Assembly: GCA_964407595.1 (NCBI GenBank)
Contig: CAYOWE010000001.1
Span: 16,643 to 57,936, forward strand
Length of the DNA stretch: 41,294 bases
Source of the DNA: an uncultured Candidatus Saccharibacteria bacterium
GTDB taxonomy: Bacteria > Patescibacteriota > Minisyncoccia > Portnoybacterales > UBA2143
Reading direction: 5' to 3'
Shown here piece after piece: positions 6,535-35,882 of the stretch (positions are counted from its first letter, which is position 1; each line of letters opens with the position of its first letter). Under the pieces are notes generated by a model. The model saw nothing but the letters and a program-made list of their open reading frames with translations, made no database searches and was not told the DNA's origin. The position numbers were made by a program, and so were the translations under genes.

Positions 6535-6591
6535 GACTATTTTATCGAAATTTATGAGTGTAACGAAATAAATTTCGTTACAAAATTGTCA

Positions 6592-7197: not shown

Positions 7198-7605
7198 TTA
7201 TCTACTAATGAACTTTGTTTTAATCGGTAATTTATGGCTGGCCCGGCGCATGGCTTCTTTAGCCATTTCTTCAGGCACACCATCCATTTCAAAGATAATC
7301 CGGCCTGGTTTTATGGGAACGACATAATGATCAACGCTGCCCTTGCCACCGCCCATAGGCACTTCCACTCCTTTTTTAGTCACTGGTTTATCTGGAAAAA
7401 TCCTAATCCAAATCTTGCCGCCTCGTTGAACATATCTGGTCATGGCCCGGCGGGCTGCTTCAATCTGTCGAGCAGTCAGCCAGCAACCATCCAAGGCCTT
7501 TAAACCATAGGAACCAAAAGCTAAATAGCTCCCCCGAGCTGTCTTTTTTCCTCTGGCCCGTCCTTTCTGCCATTTGCGATGTTTAACTTTTTTTGGAGAT
7601 AACAT
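7198..7605 (-). CDS. rplP: 50S ribosomal protein L16
   Basis: The 135-aa ORF begins [11 protein letters not shown] and contains RMGGGKG-like residues. Confidence 0.97.
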
Positions 7606-7672
7606 ACCAATTTTCTCAACGAGGCAAAGTCGCTTAAGGCGACCGCCCGCCGAGTTGTTAGAAAATTGAGTA

Positions 7673-7771
7673 CCCCGCCCTCTAAGCTATAACCTAGTAA
7701 TAATGAAGGTTATTAATAAGTATAATTTGCTTTTAGCCTTATACCTTGCAGTTAAAGCATAGAGGGCGGGG
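7673..7771 (-). repeat. GC-clamped long hairpin element, copy 2 (rpsC|rplP spacer)
   Basis: The inverted repeat lies at 7673-7683 / 7761-7771. The interior closely matches copy 1. Confidence 0.85.
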
Positions 7772-7827
7772 TTAAGGTTCTGTTACTAAAATTTATTCGC
7801 TATTACTCCAAATTTTAGACAGAATCC

Positions 7828-8478
7828 TTAAAAAACTTCTCCTTTATAAATCCAAACTTTTACGCCGATAGTGCCATAAGTAGTGTAAGCAGTCGCTTGA
7901 GCATAGTCAATATCAGAACGCAAGGTCTGTAAAGGAATTCTCCCCTTCTTTAGCCATTCTCTCCGGGCAATTTCTGCTCCGTTCAATCTTCCTTTAAGCA
8001 TAACTTTTATTCCCTGAACTTCCTTATTCTGCGTAACTTTACTCAAGGTCTGCTTCATTACTCGGCGATAAGGAAAACGTCTTTCTATCTGACTAACCAT
8101 ATCAGCCGCGACAATAGCTGCTTGCGAGCCAATTTGTTTGATTTCTTCGATTTCTAAACGAACTTCGAGATTAGCTGATTCAGGTTTGCATTTTTGAAGA
8201 ATCTTTTTTATTTCCTGTTTTAACTCTTCAGCACCACTGCCGCCTCGACCAATAACTAATCCGGGCCGAGCTGTTTGAATAATAATATTAATAGAATTAG
8301 CCGAGCGTTCTATTTTAATTGAATTAATTCCTGCTTTATCTACCTTTTTCACAATAAACTCCCGCAATTTAACATCTTGCTCTAAAAATTCCTTATACTT
8401 TCTCTTACTAAACCAGCAGGACTTCCAATCAGCCCCTAGGCCTATTCGAAAAGATAATGGATGAACTTTTTGTCCCAT
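7828..8478 (-). CDS. rpsC: 30S ribosomal protein S3
   Basis: The 216-aa ORF begins MGQKVHPLSFRIG and has a KH domain. Confidence 0.97.
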   Translation of the reverse strand: MGQKVHPLSFRIGLGADWKSCWFSKRKYKEFLEQDVKLREFIVKKVDKAGINSIKIERSANSINIIIQTARPGLVIGRGGSGAEELKQEIKKILQKCKPESANLEVRLEIEEIKQIGSQAAIVAADMVSQIERRFPYRRVMKQTLSKVTQNKEVQGIKVMLKGRLNGAEIARREWLKKGRIPLQTLRSDIDYAQATAYTTYGTIGVKVWIYKGEVF

Positions 8479-8485
8479 AATTGTT

Positions 8486-9106
8486 TTAGATACTTTTTCT
8501 CCTAAAATATTTTTTGATATTACCGAAAGTCTGACGGCTAAAAAACCTTTTCTTGGATTGAGAAGTAGTTGGATAAGGCCGGGGCGGCAAGACCGGTTTT
8601 GGTTTGGGTACCGGACCCTTTACTTCTTTTATTCTCTGAATCTCTTCTAATAATTCCGGTTCTTTTTTTTCTTCTTTGCCTTCAACAGTTTTAGCGGAGA
8701 AAGACTTGGCAACTAATGGCTTTTCCTCTTTGGCTGTTCTTGACTCAACTTCCTTAACTTCTTGAGAAACTGATGCTTCTTTTTCATTTAAAATTAAAGT
8801 AATATGACTGGTTCTTTTCATTATCGGCGTCGTCCGACCCATGGCTCGTGGTCGCCATCTTTTTAAAGTTGGCCCACTCTCAACAATAACATTACTGACG
8901 TAAAGATTCTCTTTGACTAAATTTGCTTTGTTTTTAGCATTAGCCACTGCCGAATTAAGCAGCTTTAAAACGGGCTTAGCTGCTTTCTTGGTCAAAAATT
9001 TTAATTGTCTTTCCGCTTCAATTACTGACAAACCCTTAATTAAATCAGTAACTAATCTGATTTTGCGAGATGAAATTCTTAAGTGACTTAATTTAGCCGT
9101 AATCAT
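8486..9106 (-). CDS. rplV: 50S ribosomal protein L22 with long charged/proline-rich C-terminal extension
   Basis: The 206-aa ORF has an L22 core in its first ~110 aa. It is in operon order. Confidence 0.93.
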   Translation of the reverse strand: MITAKLSHLRISSRKIRLVTDLIKGLSVIEAERQLKFLTKKAAKPVLKLLNSAVANAKNKANLVKENLYVSNVIVESGPTLKRWRPRAMGRTTPIMKRTSHITLILNEKEASVSQEVKEVESRTAKEEKPLVAKSFSAKTVEGKEEKKEPELLEEIQRIKEVKGPVPKPKPVLPPRPYPTTSQSKKRFFSRQTFGNIKKYFRRKSI

Positions 9107-10267: not shown

Positions 10268-10771
10268 TTATTTCGGCAATAACTCTATTTTTTCTCCTTT
10301 GGCTAAGGTAACAATCGCTTTTTTAAAACCCTTTTTTAACCCATGACGCCAACCTTCACTGCGACCCAAACGTCTTTTTTTGGGAGCTGAATGGATTAAA
10401 TGAACTTTTTCCACCTTAACGCCATAAAGTGTCTCAATAACCTTTTTAATCTCAACCTTATTGGCCTTGGGAAAGACCTTAAAAACGTATTTATTTTGGT
10501 TAGCTAAAAAATTAGCTTTTTCGGTAATATGCGGCTCTTTAATAATCCGATAGGCCTCTGGTACTTTTTTGCCAACGACTTTTTGGAGCTTTTCTTTCTT
10601 GGATTTCTCATTCTGGTCAGCCTTCTTATTTTCTTTTTTTTCGGGTTTCTTTATTATCTGGACTTTTTCTTTCTCACTAGAAGCGGATCTGCCCACGTCA
10701 GTCCGCTCTTGGCGGATTTGGCTGACTTTGGCAGATTTTATTTTCTTTTTAAATCTATCTAATAAAGCCAT
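10268..10771 (-). CDS. rplW: 50S ribosomal protein L23 with ~70-aa K/E-rich N-terminal extension
   Basis: The 167-aa ORF has an L23 core in its C-terminal ~95 aa (ITEKANFL...VFKV). It is in operon order. Confidence 0.92.
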   Translation of the reverse strand: MALLDRFKKKIKSAKVSQIRQERTDVGRSASSEKEKVQIIKKPEKKENKKADQNEKSKKEKLQKVVGKKVPEAYRIIKEPHITEKANFLANQNKYVFKVFPKANKVEIKKVIETLYGVKVEKVHLIHSAPKKRRLGRSEGWRHGLKKGFKKAIVTLAKGEKIELLPK

Positions 10772-14491: not shown

Positions 14492-14554
14492 GCTAATTTT
14501 CTCAACGAGACAAGCAAGCTTGCTTGCGACATCGAGTTGTTAGAAAATCGAGCA

Positions 14555-14683: not shown

Positions 14684-16819
14684 TTACGACTTGGATTTTT
14701 GGTCTGAACCAATTATCTCTTCAAGCACATTCTTGGGCACTTCAGCATAATAGTCAAATTCCATGGTGAAAGTGGCTCGGCCTTGAGTCATTGACCTTAA
14801 TTGAGTAGCATAGCCAAACATACTAGCCAAAGGCACCTGGGCATCAATTACTTTAACCCGACTGGCCTCTTCTCCTCTGTCTTCCATTTTGGCAATCTTA
14901 CCTCGTTTAGCACTAATGTCACCGATAACATCTCCCATAAACTGCTCCGGAGTAACCACCTCTAATTTCATAACTGGCTCTAATAAAATCAAATCAGCCT
15001 GTTTAACTGCTCCCTGCAAAGCGATTGAACCAGCAATTTTAAAAGCGGCTTCCGAAGAATCTACATCATGATAAGAACCATCGTAAAGGGTGACTTTCAG
15101 GTCAACTAAAGGATAACCGGCTAAGACACCTTTATCCATCGCTTCTTTAACTCCCTTTCCCACAGCCGGAATAAATTCCTGGGGAATGACACCTCCTTTA
15201 ATCGTATTAATAAATTCAAAGCCCTGACCTCGTTCTTGCGGTTCAACTTTCAACCAAACATGACCATATTGGCCATGACCGCCAGTCTGACGAATGTATT
15301 TTCCTTCGGCTTCCGCCATCTCTTTAATTGTTTCCTTGTAAGCTACTTGGGGCTGACCAATATTGGCCCCTACTTTAAATTCCCTCAGCATTCGGTCAAC
15401 AATAACTTCCAGATGTAATTCGCCCATGCCGGAAATAATCGTTTGACCGGTCTCGGTATCACCTTTAATCTGGAAAGTTGGATCTTCATCGGCTAGCCGT
15501 TTTAGGGCCAGACCCATTTTTTCCTGGTCAGCTTTTGTCTTTGGCTCAATAGCAATAGAAATAACTGGTACGGGAAAAGTAATTTTTTCTAAAAGTATCG
15601 GCTGATTAGGATCAGCTAAGGTATCGCCAGTAGTCGTTTCCTTAAGGCCAATAGCTGCTCCGATGTCTCCGGCATAAAATTCTTTTACTTCTTCGCGTTG
15701 AGCCGCATGCATTCTCAAAAGGCGACCGATTCTTTCTTGTTTACCCGTGTTAGAGTTTAGCACATAAGAACCACTCGTCAAGATACCAGAATAAATTCTT
15801 AAATAGGCTAATTGACCAACAAAAGGGTCGGTAGCTATTTTAAAAACCAAAGCCGCCAAAGACGCCTCATCTTTGCTCTCTCTGGTCAATTTCTTTGTTT
15901 CATCTTTAAAGTCAAAACCCTCAACTGACGGCAAGTCAACTGGAGCAGGCAAGTAATCAATAATACCATCTAATAAAAGTTGGATTCCCTTATTTTTTAA
16001 AGCCGAACCGCAAAAAACCGGCACTAATTTATAATTAATAGTTGCTTGACGCAAAACCCGCTTCAAATCTTCTTCTTTTATTTCTTGGCCATCTAAATAT
16101 TTTTCAGTCAATTGGTCATCTTGTTCAACAATTTTTTCCAGCATCTTATTTTGATAATCCTTACTCTCCTCTTTCATTTCTTGAGGAATTTCCTCTTCAA
16201 CAACTTGCTCACCGTGATCGCCAATAAACTTATAGGCCTTCATCTTAACTAAATCAATTATTCCCTGATGTTTTTCTTCTAAGCCAATGGGGATTTGCAG
16301 AACGACCGCTTGAGGAGTTAATCGCTGCCAAATTGAATTTAAACTCTTTTTAAAATCAGCCCCGGTTCTGTCTAATTTGTTAATAAAACAAAGACGCGGC
16401 ACTTTAAATTTATCCGCCTGACGCCAGACCGTTTCCGACTGTGGTTCCACACCGGCTACTCCATCAAAAACAACTACGGCTCCGTCAAGCACTCTTAAGG
16501 AACGCTGCACTTCAACCGTAAAATCAATATGACCGGGCGTATCAATGATGTTAATAAGGTACTCTCCTGGTCCGCTTTCCTTAGATAAATATCCTCGAGC
16601 TGTCCAAAAACAAGTGGTCGCCGCCGCCGTAATAGTAATGCCTCTCTCTTTTTCTTGTTCCATCCAGTCCATGATTGCCTCACCTTCATGAACCTCGCCA
16701 ATTTTATGAGAAATACCAGTATAAAAAAGCACCCGTTCCGTAACGGTGGTCTTACCTGCATCAATATGAGCAATGATGCCGATGTCTCTTGTTTTTTTAA
16801 TTGGATATTGTCTGGGCAT
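14684..16819 (-). CDS. fusA: Elongation factor G
   Basis: The 711-aa ORF contains [15 protein letters not shown] and DTPGHIDF. Confidence 0.97.
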
Positions 16820-34551: not shown

Positions 34552-34621
34552 GCCAATGTTGTCTAAATTTATAAGCTGAGCTCAATGCGAAGCGTAATGA
34601 ATTTAGCCACAACATTGAGCA

Positions 34622-35136: not shown

Positions 35137-35189
35137 ATCAATCAGGGACCATCTTTGTCAAGTCCTGTTTATCCACAGCTTATAAACAA

Positions 35190-35882
35190 TTATTTATCAA
35201 TGATTAAATCAATCGTTTTTTCTAAGGATTCTTGAGAATTACTAATAATAAAGTAATCGCCTACTTGACTATAAAGATAATTAATTGTCGAAGAAAGAGG
35301 TCTTAAAATAGTTATTTCAATCTGACGGTAAATTTGAGAGGAAAGATCATAATCCTCTTTAAGTTTTGACTCAATTTTATCTAATATCTGGCTTATTTGA
35401 GCCGTTGAACTTTTTTTCTCTAAAAGCAAAGTAAAAGGAAGGGATATTTCCGAATTAGCGGGCAATAGGATAAAAGCCATTTCTGGCTTAAAAAGCGGCT
35501 GGATATCTTCTTGAAAACTCAATTGCGACTGAATGAAATAATCATTGAGTTTGTCCATAGCTCCCGGCCCATAGAAATTATTTTCTCTTAAAAATTGATT
35601 TAAAGGAGCCATCTGTGGATAAAGTTCTTGCTGATTAATTAGCCCAAAAATAACGGTTTCTTCAGGAATTAAATCAGCAAAAGCCATTTTTTGAGAAGAG
35701 AAAAACCAGCAACCCAGGATTGAAAAAATAATTATTAGAAATAAACCAATGCCTAAAAACAGCCATTTTCTTGATGGCTGTTTTTGCTTTGCTTCTGGCC
35801 TATCCCGCAAATCCACTTTCATTTCTTCAGCAATCTCATCAGCCGAATCACCTTTTTTAATTTGAATGGGAATTTTGGGCAT
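35190..35882 (-). CDS. Membrane-anchored hypothetical protein
   Basis: The 230-aa ORF has one TM segment. Its C-terminal domain resembles the central domain of the upstream 628-aa protein (YFIISNSQESLEKTIDLI versus KLVMTTSRESMYATIDAL). Confidence 0.55.
   Translation of the reverse strand: MPKIPIQIKKGDSADEIAEEMKVDLRDRPEAKQKQPSRKWLFLGIGLFLIIIFSILGCWFFSSQKMAFADLIPEETVIFGLINQQELYPQMAPLNQFLRENNFYGPGAMDKLNDYFIQSQLSFQEDIQPLFKPEMAFILLPANSEISLPFTLLLEKKSSTAQISQILDKIESKLKEDYDLSSQIYRQIEITILRPLSSTINYLYSQVGDYFIISNSQESLEKTIDLIIDK

Follow-up and report, generated by a model that had tools for sequence, protein, structure and literature searches.

The helix directly upstream of the rplP start codon, here called D3, is very probably the start-codon-proximal terminal hairpin of a composite, mobile and palindromic insert of ~200-230 nt. 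The helix is real, and its pairing is maintained by compensatory substitutions across genomes. Relative to a genome of the same genus (G001), the insert is an insertion that replaces an AT-rich spacer of 3-16 nt exactly from stop to start codon. The element is a palindromic intergenic mobile repeat, unusual in its three-hairpin plan, in its ends, which coincide with stop and start codons, and in its GIY-YIG passenger. The reading as a whole, in which D3 terminates a mobile stop-to-start insert that has a fold-away role, is put forward tentatively.

CPR bacteria have genomes of ~0.5 Mb with almost no non-coding DNA. The source genome (G000; 498,530 bp in 48 contigs, 37% G+C, estimated to be 90% complete) accommodates no fewer than 16 inserts of ~200 nt, among them several within ribosomal-protein operons; 12 full copies were found in it, together with shorter and longer variants. 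The window, i.e. the whole stretch of 41,294 nt that was analysed (C1:16643-57936 of G000), carries a ribosomal-protein operon on its minus strand, in which copy 2 of the insert separates rpsC from rplP. An RNase III is also encoded in G000 (C22:5760-6155, 138 bits).

Structure of the rpsC-rplP insert

Both rpsC and rplP have canonical termini, and the whole of the 222-nt gap between them is taken up by the insert. The coordinates of the genes, of the hairpins of copy 2 and of D3 in the other copies of the window are given in Table 1.

Table 1. Positions of the rpsC-rplP region and of the insert hairpins in the window
Feature	Position	Strand	Basis and remarks
rpsC (ribosomal protein S3) CDS	7828..8478	-	ORF list; translation ends ...KVWIYKGEVF*; stop TAA at 7828-7830
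rplP (ribosomal protein L16) CDS	7198..7605	-	ATG at 7603-7605
Ancestral Shine-Dalgarno sequence (SD; GGAG) of rplP within the last rpsC codons (AAAGGAGAAGTTTTTTAA)	7839..7842	-	Sequence; 8 nt upstream of the rpsC stop
D1, left-hand hairpin	7773..7830	-	MFE fold; stop UAA and GG paired with CCUUA just 5' of D2; stem holds a variable hairpin
D2, central 99-nt hairpin (the core of the original prediction)	7673..7771	-	GC clamp CCCCGCCCTCTATGC / GCTTAGAGGGCGGGG with one U.U mismatch; AT-rich interior
D3, whole (the helix of the original prediction)	7606-7672	-	MFE fold
D3, 5' arm UACUCAAUUUUCUAACAACUCG	7651..7672	-	Includes the 16-mer at 7651-7666
D3, variable apical hairpin	7624..7650	-	GGUCGC-CUUAA-GCGACU and GGC/GCC stem; differs in every relative of this D3 type
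D3, 3' arm CUCGUUGAGAAAAUUGGU and A of AUG	7605..7623	-	Includes the 15-mer at 7609-7623
D3 of copy 3, upstream of an 87-aa ORF	14492..14554	-	Arms as in copy 2, apical palindrome CAAGCAAGCTTGCTTG instead
D3 of copy 1, upstream of rplN	6535..6591	-	Another D3 type; weak AU-rich outer helix
D3 of copy 4	34552..34621	-	TGCTCAATGTTGT...ACAACATTGGCATG type; behind a promoter, not a gene

Six promoter-like sites were found in the region, compared to 4.5 expected, and copy 2 holds none of them. Since neither a promoter nor a terminator signal was predicted inside copy 2, rplP would be read through from rpsC. Folded as sense-strand RNA, the 222-nt spacer gave three closed hairpins, D1, D2 and D3, with a minimum free energy (MFE) of -88.7 kcal/mol (z -8.95), a stability reached by none of 200 shuffled sequences, and with about 5 unpaired nucleotides left between stop and start. 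The z value for the fold of copy 3 was -4.75.

The helix shared by copies 2 and 3 was recovered in this fold of the minus-strand RNA, and the strings of its arms, as originally read together with their coordinates, proved exact to the base. The 15-mer arm aattttctcaacgag is found at 7609-7623 and 14495-14509 and the 16-mer arm cgagttgttagaaaat at 7651-7666 and 14533-14548, the arms of copy 2 thus recurring in copy 3 at a distance of 6.9 kb; each string occurs at these two places only in the window, and they occur 2 and 3 times in the whole 498,530-bp genome. The segments enclosed by the arms differ, as 7624-7650 contains gtcgc-ttaag-gcgac and 14510-14532 contains caagcaagcttgcttg. The 3' arm had been described as ending 4 to 6 nt before the start codon, whereas that of copy 2 ends 3 nt before the ATG. 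Beyond this arm the helix of copy 2 continues, after a one-base bulge, with three more pairs (C:G, A:U and U:A) that reach the start codon. The closing U:A pair, between the U that follows D2 and the A of the AUG, comes from the consensus model and is present in all 24 aligned copies. The D1 module, TAAAGGGCTTTGT..ACAAAACCTTTA, likewise has compensatory variants in other copies and genomes.

In gene orientation, the copies share the plan stop, AGGGCTTTGT..hairpin..ACAAAACCTTTA, CCCCGCCCTCTATGC..AT-rich..GCTTAGAGGGCGGGG, TGCTCAATTTT..hairpin..AAAATTGGC, ATG, and the composite as a whole is pseudo-palindromic. D1 lies at the stop side and D3 at the start side in every copy of G000. The interior of D2 is flipped in 2 of the 12 copies, while D1 and D3 keep the gene orientation. 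The copies are mosaics, in which identical arms enclose different apices and an identical apex is found in different arms.

Insertion sites and distribution

The same-genus genome G001 has a median nucleotide identity of ~92% to G000, as measured with 400-nt fragments. Fourteen orthologous junctions could be mapped in the 490 kb of G001 that were fetched, and all 14 are free of the element. The rpsC-rplP junction of G001 reads AAAGGGGAGGTGTTC-TAA-GTT-ATG, and the other empty junctions include TAA-AAT-ATG, TAA-TTAATT-ATG, TAA-TTTT-ATG and TAG-AATTTTTT-ATG. No target-site duplication was visible when the 14 filled sites of G000 were compared to the empty sites of G001. An import of the filled alleles from distant donors was rejected, as their flanks are 87-97% identical to G001 (82% for one flank), like the genome median of 92%. 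Derivation of the 3' arm of D3 from the ancestral spacer, whether as a remnant or as an inverted copy, was discarded as well, because the sequences differ.

Among the 30 rpsC-rplP loci retrieved from relatives, the spacer measures 2-18 nt at 17, and a negative estimate, which stands for an overlap or for imprecise mapping, was obtained at 4. Besides G000, only one genome (G010), which has many copies of the element, carries a related element at this junction; in other relatives the junction is occupied by unrelated palindromic inserts. No copy was found anywhere in G001, G015, G002 or G023. The exact clamp is present in 5 of 61 relatives, and the exact D2-D3-ATG pattern in none of 400 genomes sampled across the phylum. 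A GTDB-wide scan of 185,579 species genomes detected the clamp in many scattered Patescibacteria/CPR metagenome-assembled genomes (MAGs), and the D2 clamp surrounds unrelated interiors in many CPR MAGs. The genes that follow the module are many and unrelated, rplN, mreB and rplX among them, and D2-type hairpins are located inside the RNase P RNA genes of two CPR MAGs.

One long copy in G000 (C13:11186-11424) has the same arms and contains, in its D2 loop, a 70-aa GIY-YIG ORF (PF01541, E 8.7e-11), the product of which has a nuclease fold and is not a known transposase. Two traits associated with homing endonucleases are present, namely a nuclease ORF within the element and presence/absence polymorphism at identical sites.

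Several other origins were considered and abandoned. A phage origin found no match in viral contigs, and Rfam searches, both at the gathering threshold and at E<=10, returned only chance matches of hairpins (miRNA precursors). Neither an Rfam family nor, in the papers searched, a description of such repeats in CPR/Patescibacteria was found. A Y1_Tnp-like gene is present in G000 (C29:2163-2891) between rpoB and rpoC. A link to RAYT/REPIN systems was nevertheless rejected, as this gene is not flanked by the element arms and does not co-occur with the element: it is found in 35 of 61 relatives and in 32 of the 56 element-free genomes, and is lacking in 2 of the 5 element bearers (G044 and G052).

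Covariation in the D3 helix

Each D3 sequence extended from the end of the D2 clamp as far as the first ATG with an ORF of at least 50 codons behind it; pairing was not required, and the alignment was anchored on the three outermost positions only. The resulting set contained 24 distinct copies, 6 from G000 and 18 from other CPR MAGs. Paired cells amounted to 93.1%, compared to 74.1% in shuffles, and changes on both sides were observed for 10 of the 12 pairs (44 cells), a result reached by none of 500 shuffles. When the alignment was slid to other registers, all of them gave less than 50% paired cells. Typical swaps replace CAATTTT/AAAATTG by CGGTTTT/AAAACCG, CATTGTT/AACAATG, CAAATTT/AAATTTG, CAAAAAT/ATTTTTG or GAATTTT/AAAATTC. 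Copy 2 has a compensated change of its own, from G-C to A-U, beside the start codon (TACT...GGTATG versus the consensus TGCT...GGCATG). In G010, the sole orthologous carrier, CAATTTT/AAAATTG has become CCATTTT/AAAATGG, i.e. the arms of the orthologous spacer do change with compensation.

The D3 subtype of copies 2 and 3 (..TTCTAACAACTCG...CTCGTTGAGAA..) was also found in two more copies of G000, in G010 and in four other MAGs, with an apex that may be as small as a 4-nt loop or as large as a 34-nt hairpin. RNAalifold analysis of 8 members of this subtype gave 20 pairs, 6 of them compensated, together with an AA bulge and a UC/UC internal loop, both of them invariant. In the 928 kb of CPR loci that were fetched, the signature TGC plus 7 nt ... 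complementary 7 nt plus GCATG occurs at 32 sites, as compared to 0, 5 and 1 sites for three controls with scrambled anchors. The view that a conserved helix enclosing a variable hairpin denotes a selected structure is borne out by this covariation, and the pattern is wider than the window alone showed.

The mismatches in D3 comprise 6 G.U and 7 A.C, some of the A.C cells being register artefacts. Wobble pairs were therefore uninformative as a signature of the RNA strand and, because G.U and A.C are equally frequent, sense RNA rather than DNA is not marked as the selected strand.

Closure on stop and start codons

A wider set comprised 73 junctions. All three bases of the stop codon are paired in 24 of them, compared to 7.0 expected, and in 21, compared to 9.7 expected, the 4 nt that directly follow D2 form pairs with the last 4 nt up to and including the A of the ATG. 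MFE folds with at most 6 exterior unpaired nucleotides were obtained for 18% of the junctions and for 4% of slid windows. The MFE folds of three G000 copies (copies 1, 3 and C7) have 32-45 unpaired nucleotides. The idea that every copy closes in this manner was weakened, since the MFE folds show closure for a minority only. Short-form composites in other MAGs (TAA-GCGAG..D2..TGCTCAnnnnnTTCGC-ATG) appear, from their sequences, to achieve stop-to-start closure by a different pairing.

The last codons of rpsC contain the SD of rplP in G001 as in most relatives, and in G001 this SD is a GGAGG located 11 nt from the ATG. G000 has kept a GGAG at this place, which is now ~230 nt from the AUG in sequence, so that the layout GGAG-AAGUUUUU-[UAA...insert...]-AUG stands against GGAGG-N11-AUG in G001. 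The geometry of a split ribosome-binding site, with an SD, closed hairpins and a restored spacing of 5-11 nt, is found in copy 2 only. An SD in the tail of the upstream gene is clear for rpsC and for the C7 copy, and most other copies have no obvious one. Copy 4 has no upstream gene and is preceded by a promoter only. For two other copies, the empty G001 site has a -10 box 8-10 nt before the ATG, and these two genes probably had almost no leader before the insertion.

Possible roles of the insert

A fold-away or bridging role of the insert, derived from its predicted structure, is possible, and we propose it with reserve. D1 closes on the upstream stop codon, D2 is a long GC-clamped hairpin, which in the full-length form carries the tiny GIY-YIG nuclease gene in its loop, and D3 closes on the A of the start codon downstream. 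With all three helices closed, the insert would become a compact side-branch of the rpsC-rplP transcript, and the rpsC stop, the ancestral SD and the rplP AUG would then meet at one junction with an effective SD-AUG spacing of ~8 nt. The insert would act in a manner akin to a very large split ribosome-binding site or to structure-assisted termination-reinitiation. The helices would be kept by selection, as an unfolded insert would uncouple an essential gene, and D3 would serve the insert as a tolerance or insulation device rather than being a regulator evolved for rplP. That the element is self-insulating, its fold standing in for the deleted spacer and enabling reinitiation or the use of the SD 230 nt upstream across a 220-nt insertion, is a rather doubtful extension of this model; if true, the element could colonise the stop/start junctions of essential operons, and even genes with short leaders. 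Against this role stand the lack of an obvious upstream SD in most copies, the closure seen in a minority of the MFE folds only, the position of copy 4 with no gene before it, the weak outer D3 helices of several G000 copies, the equal numbers of G.U and A.C mismatches and the simulated ribosome at the stop codon, which did not consistently open D3.

Cleavage of the D2 and D3 duplexes by RNase III, or by another RNase, might instead separate the rpsC and rplP cistrons, although we regard this as unlikely. According to this model, rplP would be left with a short, A-rich and unstructured leader (..GUUGAGAAAAUUGGU-AUG) behind a protective 5' hairpin remnant, and the helix would be selected as cleavage activates or stabilises the downstream message. 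An RNase III is indeed encoded in the genome, the D2 duplex is ~16 bp long, and the ~20-bp duplex of D3 is interrupted by the conserved bulge and internal loop, long duplexes with such bulges and loops being typical of RNase III substrates. Once unfolded, the 3' arm of D3 resembles the native AT-rich, SD-less leaders of G000, and D2-type hairpins inside RNase P RNA genes are what would be expected of inserts tolerated or removed at the RNA level. RNase III has also been reported to target the Correia elements of Neisseria in co-transcribed mRNAs (PMC2229807). However, processing offers no reason for the stop codon and the A of the ATG to be the exact points of closure, and the outer helix of D3 is weak and AU-rich in several copies of G000. 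The same exact closure weighs against a function in DNA only, to which we assign a low probability. D1 and D3 would then be subterminal hairpins needed as single-stranded or cruciform DNA for excision and insertion by the GIY-YIG nuclease, by a host enzyme or by one acting in trans, the RNA fold would be a neutral by-product, and the stop/start position would reflect target choice and survivorship in a gene-dense genome. The clean gain/loss polymorphism at 14 of 14 junctions, the GIY-YIG ORF in the D2 loop, the reshuffled arms and apices and the two orientations of the D2 interior are all in line with such a function, as are the equal numbers of G.U and A.C mismatches, which give no RNA-strand signature, and the unrelated palindromic inserts hosted by the rpsC-rplP junction of other relatives. 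On the other hand, the composite invariably follows the direction of transcription, with D1 on the stop side and D3 on the start side, the filled and empty sites show no visible target-site duplication, and there is no association with Y1 transposases of the IS200/RAYT type.

The original prediction was that the helix could gate translation initiation. Spelled out further, D3 would sequester the initiation region of rplP and so reduce its translation or make it conditional, until temperature, a protein, an upstream ribosome or some other trigger opened the helix; we consider this quite improbable. The initiation region is indeed buried: opening positions -18 to +13 of rplP costs 18.9 kcal/mol, the 4th highest value of 43 window genes (median ~7), the helix covers positions -1 to about -20 as well as the A of the AUG, and the conserved unpaired AA bulge and the UC/UC loop could serve as a binding site. 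A gate specific to rplP does not fit with a module that precedes many unrelated genes in many genomes, nor with the 92%-identical sister genome, which is devoid of the insert at all 14 junctions. Moreover, occlusion differs between copies, with opening costs from 4.9 to 18.9 kcal/mol, no Rfam match was obtained, and rplP is essential and must match its operon neighbours in stoichiometric expression. Strand exchange triggered by the ribosome, by which the opening of D1 at termination would free the AUG, was also rejected, since constrained folding with a ribosome parked on the stop codon did not consistently open D3. The opening cost fell from 5.7 to 1.7 in the C7 copy and, modestly, from 12.4 to 9.9 in the C23a copy, whereas in copy 2 the ribosome was of no help (18.1 versus 18.9). 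D3 as a dedicated rplP switch is thus not supported as stated.

Should it be the flanking hairpins that render the insert harmless, as the fold-away model supposes, by keeping stop, SD and start in proximity, selfish DNA would have a novel means of persisting within essential operons. A discontinuous ribosome-binding site, or translational coupling mediated by structure, would moreover be seen here in an extreme natural form.

Relation to known repeats and insertions

Among the closest described elements are the Correia elements (CREE/NEMIS) of Neisseria and the ERIC/IRU elements of enterobacteria, which are palindromic repeats of ~100-150 bp with terminal inverted repeats that are transcribed within intergenic regions, together with the genes on either side, and form long RNA stem-loops. 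Both have been reported to affect the processing or stability of mRNA, Correia through RNase III (PMC2229807) and ERIC through orientation-dependent exposure to RNase E (PMC10969869). The insert described here differs by its three hairpins instead of one stem-loop and by its ends, which are the stop codon and the A of the start codon. In addition, its full-length relative carries a GIY-YIG ORF and not a DDE transposase, its hosts belong to the CPR phylum, and it has no similarity in Rfam. The inverted arms of D2, of 15-16 nt, are reminiscent of MITEs, but the TA target duplication of these elements is absent from the G000/G001 pairs. REP/REPIN sequences (mobilised by the Y1 protein RAYT) and the ends of IS200/IS605 are likewise intergenic repeats that form hairpins, with stems that are conserved and loops that vary; in contrast to these, the Y1 gene of G000 is not flanked by element arms, and its presence does not track the element in the 61 relatives. 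Known cis-regulatory RNAs (ribosomal-protein leaders, riboswitches or thermometers) would be expected to match a covariance model and to be specific for a single gene family, and the insert shows neither feature.

For the proposed bridging, the nearest precedent is provided by genes 38 and 25 of phage T4, in which a hairpin between SD and AUG shortens a spacing of 22 nt to 5 nt and one of 27 nt to 11 nt, respectively, with a stem that is conserved among related phages (PMC3014915). In a similar manner, the GGAG embedded in rpsC would sit 8 nt from the AUG with the insert looped out. The T4 hairpins, however, are 22-27 nt long and immobile, as opposed to a 222-nt insert with three helices, most other copies of which have no obvious upstream SD. 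Located between SD and AUG, a 220-nt branch with three helices is tenfold larger than in T4, and the 30S platform may lack room for it.

Insertions in the rRNA genes of CPR bacteria are a further point of comparison. None of the GIY-YIG proteins found there is reported to reside in a group I or a group II intron, all of them lying in insertions of another kind, and many short (<200 bp), ORF-less insertions of these rRNA genes are uncharacterised (PMC11270868). The D2-type hairpins in RNase P RNA genes and the G000 copy with a GIY-YIG ORF resemble these insertions, but that study deals with rRNA genes only, and the three-hairpin composite, its position between protein genes and the start-codon helix are absent from it.

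The D3 signature (GGGG-UGCU-helix...helix-GGC-AUG) marks true start codons and accounts for odd long operon spacers in CPR genomes that would otherwise be taken as regulatory leaders or assembly errors. The insert-free counterpart of the copy 2 spacer is the G001-type junction, TAAGTTATG.

Hairpins of the D2 and D3 type at other loci

The GC-clamped hairpin of the element (D2) has counterparts in RNase P RNA genes of other CPR MAGs. These genes, bacterial in type and confirmed with Rfam, contain hairpins of ~100 nt whose clamp, CCCCGCCCTCT/AGAGGGCGGGG, is the same as that of the element, and in both loci (L081 and L090) the conserved GGAAAGUCCGAAC adjoins the clamp hairpins within the gene. 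The RNase P RNA of the source genome, G000, has a short P3 without an insert.

The third hairpin (D3), which ends at the ATG in the element, was found without a D2 hairpin in four retrieved loci. Only a G-rich, SD-like half-clamp (AAAAGGAGGGGG, GGAGCGGGG, TAGGCGGGG) precedes these modules, which results in an SD-hairpin-AUG arrangement. An unpaired loop motif, ACUCGCUUCGCUCG, recurs in many D3 apices from different genomes (e.g. L024, L055, L075, L095 and L098), and the flanks of other copies contain its reverse complement, GAGCGAAGCGA. At three separate loci, the D3 is directly followed by a perfect DnaA box, TTATCCACA, in place of the ATG. Clusters of the TGTGGATAA box lie upstream of the copy on contig C14, and one is found in the window immediately downstream of the ORF at 35190-35882.

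Coordinates of the features (G000, source genome; G001, genome of the same genus; L numbers, loci of CPR MAGs or relatives)
Feature	Location	Position	Strand
RNase P RNA gene with ~100-nt hairpin	L081	7212-7704	
RNase P RNA gene with ~100-nt hairpin	L090	2386-2762	
RNase P RNA	G000 C18	~9347	minus
D3 without D2	L095	3075	
D3 without D2	L033	3316 and 7269	
D3 without D2	L086	4606	
D3 without D2	L024	5552	minus
D3, then DnaA box	G000 C26	~1640	
D3, then DnaA box	G000 C13	~11140	
D3, then DnaA box	L088	~6922	minus
TGTGGATAA occurrence	window	~35160-35190	
ORF at rplV position	window	8486-9106	
ORF at rplW position	window	10268-10771	
fusA 3' end	window	14684-14716	
Compared fusA region	G001 C9	~16340-16372	
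Y1_Tnp ORF	G000 C29 (outside window)	2163-2891	

Neighbouring genes and junctions

Comparison of the fusA 3' ends showed that, in G000, copy 3 now supplies the final codons of the gene through its left hairpin arm; the protein ends in ..EIIGEEKK* in G001 and otherwise in G000. The 87-aa ORF between fusA and tuf is kept in G001, where a TATAAT box lies after fusA, 8 nt upstream of the ATG of this ORF.

Six other relatives carry unrelated palindromic inserts of 45-161 nt at the rpsC-rplP junction (L125, L126, L130, L135, L141 and L149). In one of them (L126, genome G017), the first ~11 codons of rplP are seen twice, flanking an insert on both sides.

The ORFs at the rplV and rplW positions encode 206 and 167 aa, respectively. 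Both exceed the usual length of the L22 and L23 proteins and may contain in-frame insertions or extensions.

Flanked by rpoB and rpoC, an ORF of ~230 aa in G000 encodes a Y1_Tnp (IS200/RAYT-like) HUH domain, with motifs including ..LMPNHFHLLL.. and ..YIHLNPL... No homologue was present in the 490 kb fetched of G001. In G000, the ORF is followed by a CTGAGGAGTGGCACTCCTCAG hairpin.
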